Source: Lacrimispora algidixylanolytica
Lineage (GTDB): Bacteria; Bacillota; Clostridia; Lachnospirales; Lachnospiraceae
Reading direction: 5' to 3'
Assembly: GCF_003609635.1 (NCBI RefSeq)
Contig: NZ_MCIA01000030.1
Coordinates: forward strand, 166,984-190,983
DNA: 24,000 bases
Below are positions 7,764 to 15,035 of the stretch, piece after piece. The notes under the pieces are model-generated. The model made no database searches, was not told where the DNA came from, and saw only the letters and a program-made list of their open reading frames with translations. The translations under genes were made by a program, and so were the position numbers. Positions within the stretch are counted from its first letter, which is position 1, and each line of letters opens with the position of its first letter.

Positions 7764-7816
7764 AAAACCCCTCCCGGGATACAGCGTATCAGCTGAACCT
7801 GGGAGGGGTTTTTTAT
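7764..7816. terminator. Bidirectional rho-independent terminator shared by fprA (+) and agrB (-)
   Basis: 12-bp perfect stem AAAACCCCTCCC (7764-7775) / GGGAGGGGTTTT (7801-7812), with a T-run on the plus side and TTTTACA on the minus side. The agrB stop codon (7813-7815) abuts the right arm. Confidence 0.75.
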
Positions 7817-8394
7817 GAATTGGATTCTATTATCACAGGATTTATTATCTTTTGCAGTACCAGTAAAAATGCAGCGGCGCAAATTGCCCATCTTATTAAA
7901 CCTCCTACATAAACCAATTGGATGGCATCAAATATCATACTACCGATATTTGCCAGGATTAGGATCTCTCTTGCTTTTTTCCTATAGAATTCTTTCTCTT
8001 TCTCATCCAGTCTCTTATTCTCATTATCAGCCGGACTCATAACATAAATAATTACGTCAGATAAGGCCAATAATCCCCACAACAAGAACTGATTTATTGT
8101 AAAATGAGATAATAAAAGGATTATAAAAATATAACAGCAGGAAAACAGATAACATCCTGTTTTGGTCTTTGCATGATATCCCCCTGCATTTCTTCTTAAT
8201 GGTATCAAAACACTTCCAATTAGAATTAATTCCGGCACCCTTTGCAAACAGACTGCAATCCATAAATATGAAATACAATGAATGATTTTCAGAATCAGAC
8301 ACTCCATTCCAAATTTATAAATTTCAGCATCTTCTTCTGCAATAATATGATAATAGATTAGTCTTCTGGTAAAGGATTCTTCCCATGGTATCAT
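7813..8394 (-). CDS. agrB: AgrB-family membrane endopeptidase (processes the AgrD autoinducer precursor)
   Basis: 193-aa polytopic membrane protein with the AgrB signature LIPLRRNAGGYHAKTKTGCYLFS. His and Cys are 7 residues apart, as for catalytic H77/C84 of S. aureus AgrB. The N-terminal EIYKFGMECLILK region is typical of clostridial AgrB. Confidence 0.85.
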   Translation of the reverse strand: MIPWEESFTRRLIYYHIIAEEDAEIYKFGMECLILKIIHCISYLWIAVCLQRVPELILIGSVLIPLRRNAGGYHAKTKTGCYLFSCCYIFIILLLSHFTINQFLLWGLLALSDVIIYVMSPADNENKRLDEKEKEFYRKKAREILILANIGSMIFDAIQLVYVGGLIRWAICAAAFLLVLQKIINPVIIESNS

Positions 8395-8407
8395 ACGGTA
8401 CTTCGCC

Positions 8408-8554
8408 TTAGAATTTTCTTAATTTCTTTGCATTTTCAGGTAATTTTGGCTGGTATCCAATGAAAAAGCAGGAACTGTTTGCTTCTGTTTTAGCGGAACC
8501 CAAGATGATTTTTGATGCAATTTCCAGTGATAATTTCTTTAATTCATGTTTCAT
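8408..8554 (-). CDS. agrD: AgrD-like autoinducing-peptide precursor (48 aa), absent from the supplied ORF track
   Basis: Hand translation gives MKHELKKLSLEIASKIILGSAKTEANSSCFFIGYQPKLPENAKKLRKF. GGAGG (8567..8563) lies 8 nt upstream of ATG 8554. It has an amphipathic leader, a single Cys followed by four hydrophobic residues (CFFIG), then a YQPKLPE charged tail. It ends 13 nt before agrB. Confidence 0.7.
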   Translation of the reverse strand: MKHELKKLSLEIASKIILGSAKTEANSSCFFIGYQPKLPENAKKLRKF

Positions 8555-8607
8555 TTTAAATGCCTCCATTCTTTTTATTGTTATTAAAAATATATGATTC
8601 GTTCCTT

Positions 8608-8659
8608 GTATTATTCTGATTTACATACAATCTTAAGAATTGGAGCATATATCTTAAAC
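8608..8659 (-). promoter_or_regulatory. Candidate LytTR (AgrA-type) direct repeats plus promoter in front of agrD
   Basis: Minus-strand 9-mers GTTTAAGAT (8659..8651) and TCTTAAGAT (8638..8630) share the core TTAAGAT at exactly 21-bp spacing. The proximal repeat overlaps a -35 TTAAGA (8636..8631); a 17-nt spacer then leads to -10 TAATAC (8613..8608). Confidence 0.4.
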
Positions 8660-9310
8660 TTCCATTACCTTTAGATTTGGTGAAACAATTAGATGTGCTT
8701 CTGTCTGATTCTGGACATCTTCTAGAGTGAATCCTGGAGCAATTTCCTTTAACACAAGTCCCTTATTGGGAACTACATCTATGACTGCCATATCGGTCAC
8801 TATGGTCTTTGCTACTTTTGTGGCGGTCAAGGGAAGTCTGCATCTTCTAAGTATCTTTGGTGCTCCGTTTTTACTTACGTGCTCCATGGCTAAAATCACC
8901 TTTTTTGCTCCCACGACCAGATCCATGGCTCCACCCATACCAGGTACTTTTTTACCCGGAATCATCCAGTTGGCAACGTTTCCCTCTTCATCCACTTCCA
9001 AAGCTCCTAATACCGTAACATCTACGTGTCCGCCCCGTATAAGACTAAAGGAGAATGCGCTGTCAAAGTAACTGGCTCCTTTTACCGTAGTCACATAATT
9101 TCCACCTGCGTCAATACAGTTTAAAGATTCTTCCTCCTGGCTGGCATTGGGTCCCACGCCCATGATTCCATTTTCTGCTTCTAGCATGACATGAACATCT
9201 TCTGGTATGTAGTTAGCCACCATGGTTGGCATACCAATGCCAAGATTGACAACATCACCATCTTTTAATTCCTTTGCGATTCTTTTTGCAATCAATTCTC
9301 TCTTATCCAT
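8654..9310 (-). CDS. ctfB: Acetate/3-oxoacid CoA-transferase subunit B
   Basis: 218 aa. MDKRELIAKRIAKELKDGDVVNLGIGMPT. Catalytic-glutamate ENG motif within LEAENGIMG. Confidence 0.92.
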   Translation of the reverse strand: MDKRELIAKRIAKELKDGDVVNLGIGMPTMVANYIPEDVHVMLEAENGIMGVGPNASQEEESLNCIDAGGNYVTTVKGASYFDSAFSFSLIRGGHVDVTVLGALEVDEEGNVANWMIPGKKVPGMGGAMDLVVGAKKVILAMEHVSKNGAPKILRRCRLPLTATKVAKTIVTDMAVIDVVPNKGLVLKEIAPGFTLEDVQNQTEAHLIVSPNLKVMEV

Positions 9311-9313
9311 ATT

Positions 9314-9970
9314 TTAACCCACCTTTACTATGGCATTAACTAAGACTCCAGGAACATTTACATGATTTGGTTCAATTTCTCCAATTGGTACAATCTCATT
9401 AACCTCAGCAATCACATAGTCCGCAGCCGTTGCCATGACAATATTAAAATTACGGGAAGAACCTCTGATGATCAAGTTACCGGCTTCGTCTGCTTTGTCT
9501 GCCTTAATGAAGGCTACATTTGCTTTTAAAGGCATCTCAAGAAGGTATTCCTTTCCCTGGATTTCAAGTTTTTCCTTGCCTTCTTCCACAATCGTACCAA
9601 GACCAACCGGGGTTAATACCCCTCCAAGACCAGCTCCACCAGAACGTATCTTCTCCGCTAAAGTGCCCTGTGGGAAAAGCTTAACCTCTGCTTCCCCTGA
9701 CATCATAAGTCTTCCGGTTTCTGGATTAGAGCCAATATAGGATGCGAAGATACGTTTGACTCTTCCACTTTTTACAAGCTGAAATATGGATAGATCTTTG
9801 GTACCGGTATCATTTGATATAACGGTTAGGTCTTTGGCTGAATTTGTTTCTAATAACGCATTTACCAGATGCTCCGGGTGACCTCCTGCTAAAAAGCCAC
9901 CTACCATGATTGCATCTCCATCTTTTACTTTTTCTACTGCTTCTTTGGCTGATAACAATTTACTTTTCAT
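9314..9970 (-). CDS. ctfA: Acetate/3-oxoacid CoA-transferase subunit A
   Basis: 218 aa. AKEAVEKVKDGDAIMVGGFLAGGHPEHL is typical of subunit A. It sits 3 nt upstream of subunit B. Confidence 0.92.
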   Translation of the reverse strand: MKSKLLSAKEAVEKVKDGDAIMVGGFLAGGHPEHLVNALLETNSAKDLTVISNDTGTKDLSIFQLVKSGRVKRIFASYIGSNPETGRLMMSGEAEVKLFPQGTLAEKIRSGGAGLGGVLTPVGLGTIVEEGKEKLEIQGKEYLLEMPLKANVAFIKADKADEAGNLIIRGSSRNFNIVMATAADYVIAEVNEIVPIGEIEPNHVNVPGVLVNAIVKVG

Positions 9971-9973
9971 GTC

Positions 9974-10735
9974 TTAGTTCTCCTTTCTATCCTTTAAGTA
10001 ATCATACATTACACTTGCATACGGAAGGGTTAAATCGGCAATGAAATGCCTTCCCTCCACGTAGGATTTAACGGGTAAATCAGCGACTGGCGCGTTGACG
10101 TGAGGAATTAAGTTTAATCTGGCAGGTCCTGACCAGGCCCCTTTTACAGTAATATCTTCCAGGTGATAAGAAACAAGCTGGGCAATGGCAGGGTTTCCGT
10201 CAACATCAGGAATTAATTTCAGATTTACCTGCTTTTTTGCTATGGTTTTTGCTATTTCAGTCTTATCAAGTGTGTTGTATTTAAAGGGCATCGTACCCGT
10301 TGCCACCAAAACGTTATTGTAAATTAACCTGCCGGTCAATGTTTCGGTCTCATCCACCCTCAGTGTAGGGTGGCCCCATTTTTTAGGGAATCCCCAGATT
10401 TCACGGCCTGCTAATATGGCAGGAGCATTATCTAGATACATCTGAGCAACAAAGTTGCACGCTTCTCCATGATAGGTACAGGGAATGACGATCCCGCTTT
10501 CTTCATATGAGCCTAAGCCTGAGGAATCAGGCATTTTAATCCATTCATATGTAACCGTATTGCTTCCGTCTGGCTCTAATGGTTCTGGAACCGCCTCACG
10601 GATTGCGGCTGGATCTGATTTGTAGGTGACAGTAAAAAATTCCCGGTTAATGAAACGGCACGGCGGGCGACCATAGCTGGCACTTGCCGCTGGCATTGAT
10701 TGTAAGGATAAAACATCTTCTGACGTCATAATCAT
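9974..10735 (-). CDS. adc: Acetoacetate decarboxylase
   Basis: Aligns by eye along its whole length with C. acetobutylicum Adc. Matches include GRPPCRF (Arg29 region), GSYEESG (Glu61 region), FPKKWG (catalytic Lys115/116), LKLIPDVDG and YDYLK at the C-terminus. An alternative start at ATG 10729 has better RBS spacing. Confidence 0.9.
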   Translation of the reverse strand: MIMTSEDVLSLQSMPAASASYGRPPCRFINREFFTVTYKSDPAAIREAVPEPLEPDGSNTVTYEWIKMPDSSGLGSYEESGIVIPCTYHGEACNFVAQMYLDNAPAILAGREIWGFPKKWGHPTLRVDETETLTGRLIYNNVLVATGTMPFKYNTLDKTEIAKTIAKKQVNLKLIPDVDGNPAIAQLVSYHLEDITVKGAWSGPARLNLIPHVNAPVADLPVKSYVEGRHFIADLTLPYASVMYDYLKDRKEN

Positions 10736-10759
10736 TTTCCTTTCCCTAAATGAAATCGT

Positions 10760-11944
10760 TTATATGTTAGCGTTTTCAACCAGCATCGCAATGCCCATGC
10801 CTCCGCCGATACATAAGGCAGCAACACCGTAATGTGCGGATCTACGTGTCATTTCATGAATTAAGGTAACCAGTACCCGGGCACCACTTGCCCCTAATGG
10901 ATGCCCTATGGCAATTGCACCGCCATTGACATTTATCTTTGATGAATCGATCCCAAGCTCCCTTGTGGCGGCCACTGCCTGTGCCGCAAAGGCTTCATTT
11001 AATTCAAAAAGATCAATATCATTCACCGATAATCCCTGTTTTTTCAGTAGAGTCGAAACTGCTTTTACGGGGCCCATTCCCATATAAGCAGGATCAACGC
11101 CGACAAGGGAATAGCCCTTGATGAAAGCCGCTGGCTTTAAGCCATGCTCCCTACATGCTTCCTCTGACGCTACTATCATTGCTGCCGCACCATCGCTGAT
11201 AGGGGAAGCATTTCCTGCCGTAACGGTTCCATCCTGTTTGAATACGGTTCTTAAGGTGGAAAGCTTTTCCTTAGACGTATCTGCTCTTACGTGTTCATCC
11301 TCTGTGAAGTGAATTTCTTCTTTTTTCTTTTTGATGATTACAGGAACAATCTGTCCGTCAAAAACCTTATTTTTCTGAGCTTCTGCTGCCCTTCTATTAC
11401 TTTCATAAGAAAATTCATCCTGTTCTTGTCTGGTTACTTTATACTTTTCAGCCACATTTTCCGCAGTAAGTCCCATATGGTAATCATTGATGGCACAGGT
11501 TAGGCCATCACCAATCAGACTATCCACCAGCTCACTGTTTCCAAGTTTGTAGCCTTTTCTTGCATTTCGCAAAAGGTAAGGCGCATTTGTCATACTTTCC
11601 ATACCTCCAGCTAACATAATGCTCCCATCTTCCGCTAAAATGGAATTGTAAGCAAGTGCAACTGCATGAAGGCCTGAGCCACAGAGCGTGTTTAATGTTG
11701 CCGCTGGTACCTCAACTGGTATTCCTGCTTTTATTGCCGCCTGTCTTGCTGGGTTCTGACCATTGCCAGCCTGGAGGACATTTCCCAAATAAACACTATC
11801 AATGAAAGAACTATCTAAATTACTTTGAAGAAGACATGCTTTTATAACGGTTGAACCTAATTCCATGGCACTTACGGGAGAAAGAGTGCCGTTAAAGGTT
11901 CCTACGGCTGTTCTTAAAGGACTTACTAAAGCTACTTTTTTCAT
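10760..11944 (-). CDS. thlA: Acetyl-CoA C-acetyltransferase (thiolase II)
   Basis: 394 aa. Active-site contexts are LNTLCGSGLHAV (nucleophilic Cys), NEAFAAQ, GHPLGASGAR (His) and CIGGGMG (second Cys). Confidence 0.93.
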   Translation of the reverse strand: MKKVALVSPLRTAVGTFNGTLSPVSAMELGSTVIKACLLQSNLDSSFIDSVYLGNVLQAGNGQNPARQAAIKAGIPVEVPAATLNTLCGSGLHAVALAYNSILAEDGSIMLAGGMESMTNAPYLLRNARKGYKLGNSELVDSLIGDGLTCAINDYHMGLTAENVAEKYKVTRQEQDEFSYESNRRAAEAQKNKVFDGQIVPVIIKKKKEEIHFTEDEHVRADTSKEKLSTLRTVFKQDGTVTAGNASPISDGAAAMIVASEEACREHGLKPAAFIKGYSLVGVDPAYMGMGPVKAVSTLLKKQGLSVNDIDLFELNEAFAAQAVAATRELGIDSSKINVNGGAIAIGHPLGASGARVLVTLIHEMTRRSAHYGVAALCIGGGMGIAMLVENANI

Positions 11945-12972
11945 AAATATTCATTCCTTTCATTTATTCGTTTGTCGGTTACCAATCAGAAATTATGATT
12001 TCAAATGTGAGACACGGTTTTATTCATGCGCTGCGTTATGTAGGGTGATTTTTCAAATTTTGAAGGTGCCTGTGGTGGTATCTTTTTGATTGATTCGTCA
12101 TATTATTAGCTCCTTTCTTCTTTCATTTGTATCACAAGGGTATTTTGCTACTCTTATTCTGGTATTTCAATACTGGTTACATAACTTACAGTTTTTGTAG
12201 TATGAGTAACAGAAAAAGGAGCCAATACAAGATTAGCTCCCGAAACTTTTGATTCTGAGTTCTTAACAAAGAATTTGAAACATATATTAAAATTCAGCCT
12301 TCTTTTTTTTAATTCAAAAAGATAACAAGAATAATTATGGCTAAACTATGGTTCAAAGAATTACTCTATTTTAAAAATTTATTGTTATCTTTTTAAGTCA
12401 ACGTCTTGTAAACAACTAGGTCGATACTCTACTTAAAAATATTTAAATATTTAAGATTATATAAGTTAGCAAGAAAAAGAAAAGGAACTTTTATAACATG
12501 CTTTTTTAGTTATTAAACCAATCATTTTAAATACTTTAGGAATAAGAGAAACAAGTTTTGTCCGTTAAACTCTGTCCTTTCATCAAAACTTATTGGTTAA
12601 AAACTGTATTATAAGAATTATTGGCATCAAAACATATGCCATTTTACTTATCATTTAAAATAATTTAATAACAACATTCATATCTTTCGGAAAGGTAGGA
12701 ACCATTGAACGTATCAAATTTAGAGAGATTAATCCATAGAATAACAGAAGTAACAACCGTAGCAGATGTGGGTTTTCATAAAATTGAAAAAGGATATCTA
12801 AATCCTATTTATAAGACATAGACCGAAGTCTTAGGAATGGAACGGTGGTGGAGCAATTGGAGTACAGGTCGAAAGGGCCAGTCGTTATAGAGATTGTTAC
12901 GGATGGCAGTGAACCTGCACCCAATGGAGATCGCTTAAAGGCATTACAAAAACACGATTAAAATATATAGAG

Positions 12973-14283
12973 CTATAAATTAAATATAATTTTACAACTA
13001 AATTTTTTATTTGCTTCTTCTAAAACCATGCTTCCATTATATTTTTTTATAATATTTTCAACATTTAATAAACCGATTCCATGGTTTTTCCCTTTTCTAG
13101 AAACCGGTTTGCCAAAATTCCATTTTTCTATTGGCATGGTACAATTACTAATATTGATGACGATAAATTCATTGTATTTGTCCAGTTTCATGTCAATGTA
13201 TCTGTGATTGGGAACTAGGTCACAGGCTTCGATTGCGTTGTCAAGAAGATTACCAAACACGGTGGTTACTTCAATGGGTTCCATAAAGCCTAGATCTACA
13301 ATACCAATATCCAAGTTAAAACAAATGGAATGAAGACTGGCAATCCTTTTTTTATCATTTAATAACACGTTTAATATTGGATTGTTTGTATAATCCTCCA
13401 AACACAGAGGTACCAACATCTGACCGATTTCCTTTGCATAAGTCTTTGCCATATCATCTTTATTGGCCTCATACAGATTCTCTATCATCTTTAAATGCTT
13501 GTTTACATCATGGAGGATTTTAACGGATTCATTATACTTTTCTCCTTGTTCCTCATAAAATTCATATTGTAGGATGGACTGTTGCTCTAATAGCTTAAGT
13601 TTAATCTTAAGCTGGCTGTTTTCTTCCACGAACCGGGCAAAGTAAGAAAAATAAAGGTCAGCAATTAATATGCAGCCCATGTTAATTAAAATTAGGATAT
13701 GATCAGTCTGACTGTTCACTTTAGAAATAACAAGTAAAATGACTGCCAGATTGGCTATGCTATATAAAATAACAAACAGTTCTATCAGACATTGTGACTT
13801 ATTAAAGGTCCGGTTTAAATCGTCTCTCCAAAGCTTAGCAATGATCTGATAATAGGAAATCAGCACAAACAATTTGGAAAAGGTGATTTCCATACTTTCA
13901 GACACGATTGGATCAACATGAAGTATTTGAAATCGCCATAGGATATAATCTAACAGCTCAACACCAACTGCCTCACATATGGATAAAATTAATATGAGTA
14001 CCGTGATATCAGCAAGCCTATGTATCACTTTTTTATTCATATGATTAAATAAAGTGATGTTCACAAGGCAAGGCAGAATAATCCAGCTTGCTATATTAAT
14101 CACTGGATTATTGAATAAATTAAGAAATACAATTATAATAGGAACTGCTGCTTCTGTAAAGAAATATAGGTATGGATTATGATAGGCCCGCTCATTTCTT
14201 TCTTCCATAAACTGGAATACAATGACGCCGTTAACAAGACATGAAATGATGGAGCCAGATATAAATATAATATAATTTTCCAT
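12973..14283 (-). CDS. AgrC-type (HPK10 family) membrane sensor histidine kinase
   Basis: 436 aa. The N-terminal ~200 aa is polytopic and hydrophobic. H-box ILHDVNKHL. N-box FGNLLDNAIEA. G-box GKNHGIGLLNVENI (GHKL ATPase). It starts 8 nt after the LytTR regulator. Confidence 0.85.
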   Translation of the reverse strand: MENYIIFISGSIISCLVNGVIVFQFMEERNERAYHNPYLYFFTEAAVPIIIVFLNLFNNPVINIASWIILPCLVNITLFNHMNKKVIHRLADITVLILILSICEAVGVELLDYILWRFQILHVDPIVSESMEITFSKLFVLISYYQIIAKLWRDDLNRTFNKSQCLIELFVILYSIANLAVILLVISKVNSQTDHILILINMGCILIADLYFSYFARFVEENSQLKIKLKLLEQQSILQYEFYEEQGEKYNESVKILHDVNKHLKMIENLYEANKDDMAKTYAKEIGQMLVPLCLEDYTNNPILNVLLNDKKRIASLHSICFNLDIGIVDLGFMEPIEVTTVFGNLLDNAIEACDLVPNHRYIDMKLDKYNEFIVINISNCTMPIEKWNFGKPVSRKGKNHGIGLLNVENIIKKYNGSMVLEEANKKFSCKIIFNL

Positions 14284-14291
14284 CTTCTCTC

Positions 14292-15035
14292 CTAAATAGC
14301 ACTTTGTATAAATGTATTTAATTTTTTTCTAAAATCAGCTGATTTTTTTTGTGAAACAGGAATTATATCGTTGTTATTTAAAAACACCTCATAGCCTTTA
14401 ATTTTTTTAACATGTCTTAAATTGATCAAAAAACACTGATGGCATGCTTCAAAGTTATGCATCTGCATTTTCTCTGCCAAATCTTTCATTTTATCTTTAA
14501 AGAAATATTCTTCATTTTCCAATTTTATTTTTATTTTTCGATTAAAGTATTCAAAATAATAGATATCTTTCACTTCAAAATCCTTAATTCTGTTTTCCAG
14601 TTCCCCATCTTGGGTAATTTCTAGTATCTCAAATTTGATTGTTTCATCTTTTTCATGTTCTTCTAGTATGCATTGTAAAATTTCATCAAGCTGTCGATCC
14701 ATCTTATCTTTTGTAATTGGTTTTACTAAATATGCAAATGCGTGCACACGATTGACTGCTTGTTTACAATATTGTTTATAACTGGTGGTGTAAATAACTT
14801 TAGAATTTCGACTGGTTTCCCGAATGATTTTTCCTACCTGGATCCCATTCATTCCGCCTAAGCCGATATCAAGAAATAACAATTCAAAAACCTCTCTGGT
14901 TTCAAGCAACTCTTCTCCTGATTGAAACCGTTTTAACTGATAGGGCATCTCTTTTGGACTCATGTAATCTTTAATCAAAGCTTCAATCTTTGCAGCATCA
15001 CTTTTGTCATCGTCACAAATAGCAATAGAAAGCAT
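14292..15035 (-). CDS. LytTR-family response regulator (AgrA-like)
   Basis: 247 aa. Receiver domain MLSIAICDDD...LLFLDIGLGGMNG. C-terminal LytTR domain FEACHQCFLINLRHVKKIKGYEVFLNNNDIIPVSQKK. Confidence 0.9.
   Translation of the reverse strand: MLSIAICDDDKSDAAKIEALIKDYMSPKEMPYQLKRFQSGEELLETREVFELLFLDIGLGGMNGIQVGKIIRETSRNSKVIYTTSYKQYCKQAVNRVHAFAYLVKPITKDKMDRQLDEILQCILEEHEKDETIKFEILEITQDGELENRIKDFEVKDIYYFEYFNRKIKIKLENEEYFFKDKMKDLAEKMQMHNFEACHQCFLINLRHVKKIKGYEVFLNNNDIIPVSQKKSADFRKKLNTFIQSAI

Follow-up and report, generated by a model that had tools for sequence, protein, structure and literature searches.

Agr loci of staphylococci fall into peptide specificity groups, and clostridial agr loci are often non-canonical. 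The agr system of Staphylococcus aureus comprises agrBDCA, the promoters P2 and P3, and RNAIII. Two direct repeats lie just upstream of its autoinduced promoter (PMC4227749). Here, we describe an agr-type locus with embedded metabolic genes in a stretch of 24,000 nucleotides (nt) from Lacrimispora algidixylanolytica (contig NZ_MCIA01000030.1, positions 166,984 to 190,983; "the window" means this whole stretch). Like the S. aureus system, the locus has four homologous types of components, with a LytTR-type regulator, and its autoinduced transcript is predicted to carry the signal-synthesis genes, which would give positive feedback. It differs in that the response regulator (RR) and histidine kinase (HK) genes come first and are followed by agrD and then agrB; the RR and HK genes lie outside the predicted autoinduced unit, with a hairpin in between; four metabolic enzyme genes are embedded; and the core of the peptide is invariant, not hypervariable. 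We think it probable that this is an agr-type locus whose self-activated operon acquired an acetone pathway as its cargo, and that the pathway is induced at high cell density.

Some clostridial agr systems have linked effectors or metabolic effects. In Clostridium acetobutylicum, agrBDCA is adjoined by an Agr-controlled lanM-like gene (CA_C0082; PMC10301443), and agr affects the fermentation physiology of C. autoethanogenum (PMC8748961). As in the window, these are anaerobic Firmicutes in which an effector gene may adjoin the agr operon. However, the agr operon is intact there, and the effector, which comes after it, is not an enzyme pathway, whereas in the window a complete three-step pathway lies inside the predicted signal-synthesis operon. 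The sol locus of C. acetobutylicum is adhE1-ctfA-ctfB, with a convergent adc and with thlA elsewhere, and that of C. beijerinckii is ald-ctfA-ctfB-adc. The window encodes the same enzyme families, for the re-assimilation of acids into acetone, but it includes thl, and its order (thl-adc-ctfA-ctfB) is that of Paenibacillus. There is no aldehyde or alcohol dehydrogenase gene in the 24-kb window, so the locus is not a clostridial sol operon. Its predicted control is also different: an agr peptide instead of Spo0A, pH, or RRNPP systems (PMC7376267).

Quorum sensing does affect solvent formation (PMC7376267, PMC8748961), and some Gram-negative bacteria use it to switch to neutral products, as with the acetoin genes of Vibrio cholerae (PMC5142617) and in butanediol fermenters (PMC4340222). 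These switches resemble what we propose in that a density signal diverts carbon from acids to a neutral product, which protects the population from acidification. They have unrelated signal chemistry and regulators and another pathway, however, and their metabolic genes are not in the signalling locus. A preliminary description of this DNA knew of no solventogenic clostridia with thl, adc, and ctfAB in one operon flanked by agr parts, and of no agr locus with an embedded catabolic or solvent operon. Our literature search likewise turned up no agr signal operon with the genes of a metabolic pathway inside it, and no report that combines agr with acetone genes. What is not unusual is the gene order thl-adc-ctfA-ctfB by itself, as this occurs in Paenibacillus.

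The locus consists of eight genes on the minus strand, at 7813–15035: a LytTR regulator, an AgrC-like kinase, and then, beyond a gap of 1 kb, thl, adc, ctfA, ctfB, agrD, and agrB (Table 1). This is the order, with the coordinates, of the preliminary description. In each of the eight proteins, the motifs for catalysis or signalling are intact. From thl to agrB, the intergenic spacers are 24, 3, 3, 99, and 13 nt (with the ATG at 8554 as the start of agrD), and the flanking genes in the window are unrelated housekeeping genes. Judged by its component content and its promoter layout, this is an agr-type system. It does not have the contiguous agrBDCA arrangement: the order is RR-HK, promoter, thl-adc-ctfAB-agrD-agrB, and outgroup loci have RR-HK-agrD-agrB.

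Table 1. Coordinates of features of the agr-type locus in the window.
Feature	Position	Strand	Details
Strong intrinsic terminator, predicted to end the thl...agrB unit	7764..7812	-	-31.5 kcal/mol; z -5.5; 0/200 shuffles as stable
agrB, membrane peptidase/cyclase, 193 amino acids (aa)	7813..8394	-	PF04647, 1.7e-34
agrD, 48-aa precursor	8408..8554	-	TIGR04223, 4e-11, 42.7 bits (cutoff 19)
ctfB-agrD spacer	8555..8653	-	no terminator; fold z -1.6; weak -10-like AATAAT at 8610-8615
ctfB, CoA-transferase subunit B, 218 aa	8654..9310	-	TIGR02428, 316 bits
ctfA, CoA-transferase subunit A, 218 aa	9314..9970	-	PF01144; TIGR02429, 224 bits
adc, acetoacetate decarboxylase, 253 aa	9974..10735	-	NF002614, 335 bits (cutoff 150)
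thl, acetyl-CoA C-acetyltransferase, 394 aa	10760..11944	-	TIGR01930, 481 bits
21-codon small open reading frame (ORF) in the 191-nt thl leader	12036..12101	-	strong ribosome-binding site; sequence MTNQSKRYHHRHLQNLKNHPT
Predicted core promoter	12142..12170	-	TTGAAA (-35, 12165-12170), 17 nt, CAAAAT (-10, 12142-12147); predicted start near 12135
Proximal LytTR-type box, predicted	12180..12191	-	CTGTAAGTTATG; centred near -50
Distal LytTR-type box, predicted	12201..12212	-	CTGTTACTCATA; first of two direct repeats, 21 bp apart
Terminator-like hairpin	12217..12241	-	10-bp stem and U-run; fold z -3.1
3' remnant of a putative thiamine-diphosphate-dependent enzyme gene, pseudogene fragment	12815..12961	+	convergent with the kinase gene
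AgrC-like sensor histidine kinase, 436 aa	12973..14283	-	PF14501 HATPase_c_5
AgrA-like response regulator (REC + LytTR), 247 aa	14292..15035	-	PF00072, PF04397

To find related loci, we searched one genome per species with the acetoacetate decarboxylase (ADC) as the query, took 10 kb of flanking sequence on each side, and mapped all of the proteins of the window onto the matches. Because this query can only find loci that contain ADC, we ran a second search from the agr side, with the kinase and with AgrB, and inspected the neighbourhoods of the hits. The module is present in 21 loci from at least five genera (Lacrimispora, Lachnotalea, Anaerocolumna, Anaerosacchariphilus, and other clostridia), and its chromosomal neighbourhood differs among them. 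The arrangement in the window is shared by L001, L011, L013, L016, L018, L019, L022–L026, L029, L031, and L085; its exact order occurs in about 12 Lacrimispora and related genomes, to which the kinase-side search adds Lachnotalea glycerini. Among these, the sister genome L001 is a metagenome-assembled genome (MAG) of Lacrimispora and is 92–99% identical to the window across the locus. Exact matches to the ADC and AgrB sequences were looked for and not found, while a homologue of the kinase, with 100% identity over the 81% of the query that it covers, is assigned to L. algidixylanolytica.

The other loci (L009, L010, L012, L020, L028, and L087) have a variant arrangement, agrD-(thl)-adc-ctfAB-agrB. 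Anaerocolumna jejuensis, several MAGs, and Clostridium sp. E02 have RR-HK-agrD-thl-adc-ctfA-ctfB-agrB. Anaerosacchariphilus has RR-HK-agrD-adc-ctfA-ctfB-agrB, without thl and with spacers of 43, 4, 2, and 15 nt (the absence and the spacers that are also recorded for L028). In L087, the spacers are about 37, 30, 19, -11, and 28 nt, as computed from gene coordinates. The preliminary description reasoned that a recent neutral insertion would be betrayed by close relatives with agrDB beside the RR and HK genes and with thl elsewhere; we found no such relatives, and the split arrangement recurs in the 21 loci.

The regulatory signals of the locus are also conserved. Just after the hairpin that follows the kinase gene, there is a promoter module with two CTGTAAnTTAT-like direct repeats 20–21 bp apart, TTGAAA, 17 nt, and a -10 element. 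We found this module in all 19 loci from the first scan and in L085, as well as in three loci without the cargo (L081, L082, and L086). It precedes thl in the window-type loci and agrD in the variant-type loci and in L081, L082, and L086. The more distant loci L083 and L084 have the same promoter layout with a different repeat, TTCGTGC, a difference that co-evolution of the site with its regulator would produce. (A scan for CTGTAA pairs at a fixed spacing of 21 bp missed most of the loci because many have a spacing of 20 bp; anchoring the scan on the -35 element solved this.) The arrangement also fits the period of LytTR sites, a 9-bp repeat with a 12-bp spacer, and TAAGTTATG agrees with the LytTR consensus, [TA][AC][CA]GTTN[AG][TG], at eight of nine positions.

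With a weight matrix for the boxes, we found a single strong pair in the 24-kb window, at the thl promoter (29 bits). In shuffled windows, the mean number of pairs that scored at least 12 bits was 0.47. The matrix did not find a pair upstream of the RR gene or upstream of agrD in the window. Matches to CTGTAA pairs within adc and ctfB were discounted as conserved coding sequence. From the layout of its LytTR/AgrA-type sites and from its presence before agrD in contiguous agr loci, we identify the thl promoter as the agr autoinduction promoter, with predicted regulator boxes; the pair of direct repeats lies upstream of the promoter that is predicted to drive agrD and agrB. Thus, the synteny, the common promoter, and the spacers, like every computational test that we made, favor the proposal of the preliminary description that peptide signalling is joined to the acetone branch in a single regulatory and, probably, transcriptional unit.

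In a neighbour-joining tree of the kinases, the cargo-bearing loci form one clade, and L081, L082, L083, L084, and L088 fall outside of it. Kinase homologues that are 41–54% identical to that of the window lie in contiguous loci, with the gene order RR-HK-agrD-agrB in L082, L083, and L084 and HK-agrD-agrB in L088. The locus of Candidatus Galacturonibacter (L086) is contiguous, has no enzyme genes, and is nested within the cargo clade, which is most simply explained by secondary loss of the cargo. Because the more distant homologues are contiguous, enzyme-free loci, the simplest history would be that adc-ctfAB (with or without thl) was inserted once, between agrD and agrB of a RR-HK-agrD-agrB locus. 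The gene for the peptide would then have been relocated to a position next to agrB in Lacrimispora and Lachnotalea. This relocation is supported by the sequence GAAAGGAG...ATG, which serves agrD in L009, L010, L020, and L028 and which serves thl directly in L013-type loci; in the window, it is still found after the promoter, where it heads the small ORF in the thl leader. In this history, the arrangement would have persisted while the genera diverged and while its chromosomal surroundings changed. The preliminary description's picture of an operon embedded between the sensing and the signal-producing halves is true of the window, then, but the ancestral insertion appears to have been between agrD and agrB.

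Base composition varies across the locus: the GC content of the sensing genes and the gap (12500–13500 and 14000–15000) is 30–33%, versus 43–46% for the enzyme genes (9500–11500). This contrast fits a separate origin for the enzyme cargo, and the composition of membrane proteins may contribute to it. We also noticed other genes near related agr loci. In L081 (9436–11690), the order is RR-HK-agrD, with the same agr promoter and the core CFFIG, and the next genes encode a secreted-looking protein of 296 aa and a DUF4885 protein in place of AgrB; a distance of 8 kb contains no agrB. These genes may represent another sort of cargo, or the signal precursor may be processed in trans. In L084 (10746–12137), a gene for a radical-SAM/SPASM enzyme lies directly after agrB and the core of AgrD is CICIG, which hints at further modification of the peptide or at another type of cargo. 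In Anaerocolumna-type loci, the 430–560-nt spacer between ctfB and agrB is filled by a tandem array of 42-nt repeats (for example, 6.4 copies with 86% matches at 12170–12436 of L010; L009 also has the array).

The two sensing proteins form a polytopic HPK10-type kinase (with HATPase_c_5) and a REC-LytTR regulator. The regulator has the acidic pocket (DDD, 8–10), the phospho-acceptor D56 (within FLDI), and K105. It scores 40.6 bits against the NCBIfam equivalog model for AgrA, which is far under the cutoff of 400, so we describe it as AgrA-like and not as an orthologue of AgrA. The kinase has about six hydrophobic segments in residues 1–214, followed by an H-box (HDVNKH, 258–263), an N-box (NLLDNA, 345–350), and a G-box (HGIGL, 401–405), and a homologue that is 66% identical (P0021) bears the name AgrC in one source. 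Among solved structures, we found no sequence relative of the kinase and only generic receiver or LytTR domains for the regulator. The two genes are separated by 8 nt in all of the loci. The divergences of AgrB, the regulator, and the kinase are correlated across loci (Spearman 0.62–0.83). AgrB belongs to the family of membrane peptidases and contains GGYHAKTKTGC (71–81), with the pair His74/Cys81; this spacing of +7 is the same as that of H77 and C84 in AgrB from S. aureus. As for a divergent RNA of the RNAIII type, no family in Rfam reached its gathering score anywhere in the window, and the AT-rich part of the gap upstream of thl is not conserved outside the window and L001. A scan of the window for tRNAs was empty.

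The profile for AgrD matches an ORF at 8408–8569. The likely start is the ATG at 8554, which is behind GGAGG, because this gives a precursor of 48 aa, the length of all of the orthologues. The precursor has the parts that are expected of AgrD: an amphipathic leader, a cysteine with four more residues, and a conserved charged follower. It reads ...NSS-CFFIG-YQPKLPENAKKLRKF, and by analogy with characterised AgrDs we predict that the signal is a ring of C-F-F-I-G. Rearrangement to a homodetic cyclopeptide, a reaction shown in other clostridia (PMC8251862), may follow if the mature form lacks a tail at its N terminus. Of the 19 loci from the first scan, 18 encode exactly NSSCFFIGYQPKLP in AgrD; the exception, L020, differs by one S-to-A substitution. 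The core CFFIG is common to Lacrimispora, Anaerocolumna, Anaerosacchariphilus, Candidatus Galacturonibacter, and other clostridia, and is also found in the cargo-free loci L081, L086, and L088. In Lachnotalea the core is CFFLG, and in loci that are more distantly related it is CLLFG or CICIG. Since the core is invariant, its covariation with the sensor domain of the kinase gives no information. We found no description of a CFFIG peptide in the literature.

The enzymes also have the expected residues. Thl is a biosynthetic thiolase with the Cys/His/Cys triad (C88, H348, and C378) and N316. The decarboxylase aligns from end to end with 3BGT and 3BH2, and its PKK (117–119) corresponds to the YPKK of the C. 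acetobutylicum enzyme, so this is a true ADC with the pair of active-site lysines. CtfA and CtfB, which exceed the cutoffs of TIGR02429 and TIGR02428, respectively, make up a two-subunit family I CoA-transferase, for which the substrates are predicted, and the catalytic glutamate is in the ENG of subunit B (EAENG, 44–48). In a comparison with L002–L008, the ADC of the window is 82–85% identical to those of the Paenibacillus polymyxa group, versus 75–79% to other ADCs from Lacrimispora. Thl, CtfA, and CtfB have no such leaning towards Paenibacillus, and the similarity of ADC could reflect gene-level exchange or uneven constraint.

The gap between the kinase gene and thl had been described as 1 kb of non-coding DNA. 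It contains no intact gene, but it is not a plain spacer either: it holds the remnant of a thiamine-diphosphate (ThDP)-dependent enzyme, about 630 nt of AT-rich sequence, a hairpin, the promoter (12142–12212), and a 191-nt leader. In most relatives the gap is just 185–237 nt, versus about 1 kb in the window and 2,483 nt in L001. By this comparison, the 1-kb gap is a recent, lineage-specific, decayed insertion into an ancestral gap of about 230 nt. The AT-rich part is common to the window and L001 only. The last 29 codons of the remnant (12872–12958) are 93% identical to an ORF of about 474 aa in L001, which matches PF00205 and PF02775, is truncated at its N terminus, and lies on the opposite strand from the genes of the locus; the remnant is putatively of the acetolactate-synthase-like superfamily. 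We rejected the ThDP enzyme as a part of the system because only the window and L001 have it and it is truncated even in L001.

The hairpin at 12217–12241 aligns with the hairpins that lie directly 3' of the stop codon of the kinase gene in L019, L021, L029, and L028, so we regard it as the RR-HK terminator, displaced by the insertion. This terminator-like element would separate RR-HK from the thl operon. The preliminary description was right that a strong terminator follows agrB (this terminator is shared with a convergent flavodiiron gene), but the hairpin and its U-run mean that it is not the only one.

The peptide of the 21-codon ORF in the thl leader is not conserved, and L019 and L021 have other short ORFs at the same place. 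Because it also lacks a Cys/Ser ring and a follower motif, we rejected the idea that it is another peptide of the AgrD type. The ORF is probably left over from the slot that agrD occupied ancestrally, and it may have a role as a leader peptide. In L011, from Lacrimispora sp. AGF001, the gene for an IS110-family transposase (405 aa) separates the box promoter from thl by about 1.6 kb; this insertion may uncouple the enzymes from quorum control.

How would agrD and agrB be transcribed? As the preliminary description noted, there is no terminator hairpin in the spacer between ctfB and agrD, and the length of 99 nt is consistent with the start of agrD at 8554. In most other loci of the Lacrimispora type, a perfect TATAAT lies about 55 nt before agrD, together with a single CTGTAA at -35. 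The counterparts in the window are degenerate (AATAAT, at 8610–8615, and CTTAAG). Thus, a basal internal promoter for agrD is plausible in the genus and looks weak in the window. For its induced expression in this genome, agrDB most likely relies on transcription that reads through from the promoter of thl.

We propose the following mechanism. The genes for the regulator and the kinase would be expressed from their own upstream promoter. AgrB would process AgrD to a cyclic peptide with the ring CFFIG. At high cell density, the peptide would activate the kinase, and the phosphorylated regulator would bind to the boxes at 12180–12212. A single transcript from the box promoter would then encode Thl, Adc, CtfAB, AgrD, and AgrB, and the embedded agrDB would lead to more synthesis of the signal, or positive feedback. 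Because there is no box pair before agrD or before the RR gene in the window, such a feedback loop must run through the enzyme genes. The conversion of acetyl-CoA and acetate to acetone and CO2 is established biochemistry for the Thl, CtfAB, and Adc families. Here, these enzymes would convert acetyl-CoA and external acetate (or butyrate) to neutral acetone and CO2. The payoff is likely to be the use of fermentation acids, triggered by cell density, before they do harm, at the cost of the ATP from acetate formation.

Several observations weigh against this proposal. The weight matrix for the boxes was built from the same sites that it recovers, so only the absence of other sites is independent evidence, and the distal box is degenerate in the window (11.8 bits, versus 17.4 bits for the proximal box). 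In the variant loci, the agrD-thl spacers of 157–333 nt contain hairpins, which could be attenuators, or there could be a second promoter. Given the good TATAAT in many Lacrimispora loci, agrDB may be independently expressed there. We found no report in the literature of acetone as a product of Lacrimispora. Furthermore, Paenibacillus species have thl-adc-ctfA-ctfB without agr parts and with no boxes in the flanks, which shows that the cassette works without agr, and L086 shows that agr works without the cargo. Alternatively to our proposal, the cassette might have landed in the locus by chance and been kept by linkage, while being ruled by pH, acids, or Spo0A, as solvent genes are in solventogenic clostridia. 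Agr loci without the cassette (L082–L084, L086, and L088) fit this idea, as does the cassette on its own in Paenibacillus, and the locus seems to be prone to insertions (the ThDP remnant in the window and L001, and IS110 in L011). Nevertheless, we consider neutral hitch-hiking to be unlikely. The association spans about 35–40% divergence of the kinase and is seen in at least five genera, in several chromosomal settings; it outlasted internal rearrangements (agrD was moved, and thl is present in some loci and missing from others); and no separate promoter is evident, as thl uses the agr promoter and, in L013-type loci, the former ribosome-binding site of agrD.

The other alternatives concern what the parts do. 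The operon might be under quorum control for another purpose than making acetone to remove acid, such as the uptake of 3-oxoacids (AtoDA-AtoB of E. coli takes up and cleaves acetoacetate) or because CO2 or acetone is itself the product. CtfA scores 272 bits against the model for the alpha subunit of acetate CoA-transferase (cutoff 315), CtfB fits the generic family of 3-oxoacid CoA-transferases, and the variant L028 does without thl. However, ADC with its pair of active-site lysines is always present; by established enzymology, decarboxylation makes the acetone route effectively one-way, and ADC would waste the substrate of an Ato-like catabolic route. This makes another purpose improbable. 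Alternatively, agrDB could be an orphan generator whose peptide is sensed by another receptor, much as agrBD in C. perfringens signals through VirSR; that the peptide core is invariant while the sensor domains of the kinases are only about 62% identical would fit. We think that this is quite improbable, as the outgroups have contiguous RR-HK-agrD-agrB loci with homologous parts, the box promoter precedes agrD in the outgroup loci, the divergence of AgrB tracks that of the kinase and regulator, and a kinase (P0091, 44%) and an AgrB (P0156, 46%) are probably on one contig, since the longest contig given for each has 7385 bases. The idea that the enzymes make or modify the signal itself, for instance by acyl or CoA chemistry on the peptide, is hardly credible: it is suggested solely by where the enzyme genes lie in the variant loci, between agrD and agrB; each of the four has close homologues among ordinary metabolic enzymes; and the peptide does not require them, since its CFFIG core is also encoded by the cargo-free loci L081, L086, and L088.

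A more far-reaching version of our proposal is that the acetone cassette is an obligate part of autoinduction and that the peptide is a shared, cross-genus signal for collective acid removal. We view this as possible but doubtful. The invariance of the peptide core would allow signalling across species. If this version is true, then mixed anaerobic communities use one signal to trigger collective removal of acids. The Lacrimispora MAG 40-1_86 (L021) retains the RR, the HK, the box promoter, and thl-adc-ctfAB, with agrD and agrB absent (12082–12241); because the peptide core is the same from species to species, this genome could react to the signal of its neighbours without making it, and genomes of this kind would be listeners that bear none of the cost. 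This family of agr loci would be a platform that offers a slot for cargo behind agrD, and the types of cargo would include acetone genes, a secreted protein with a DUF4885 protein (L081), and a radical-SAM enzyme (L084).

How anaerobes control the switch from acids to solvents has long been asked, and the known ties of quorum sensing to this switch are loose and in trans. With our preferred reading, a density-induced agr operon that acquired the acetone pathway as cargo, the sequence itself displays the wiring, in that a single promoter with boxes, a single peptide, and a short pathway recur together from genus to genus. The support for this architecture is good, although it does not amount to a new principle. 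The source species was isolated from vacuum-packed chilled meat, so its production of gas and volatiles may have practical relevance, and a natural, putatively peptide-inducible promoter with an acetone cassette has potential for engineering in anaerobes. The invariant signal raises the question of metabolic coordination across species. Overall, the locus offers a compact, testable case of density-controlled central metabolism in the Lachnospiraceae, a group with few studied signalling systems.

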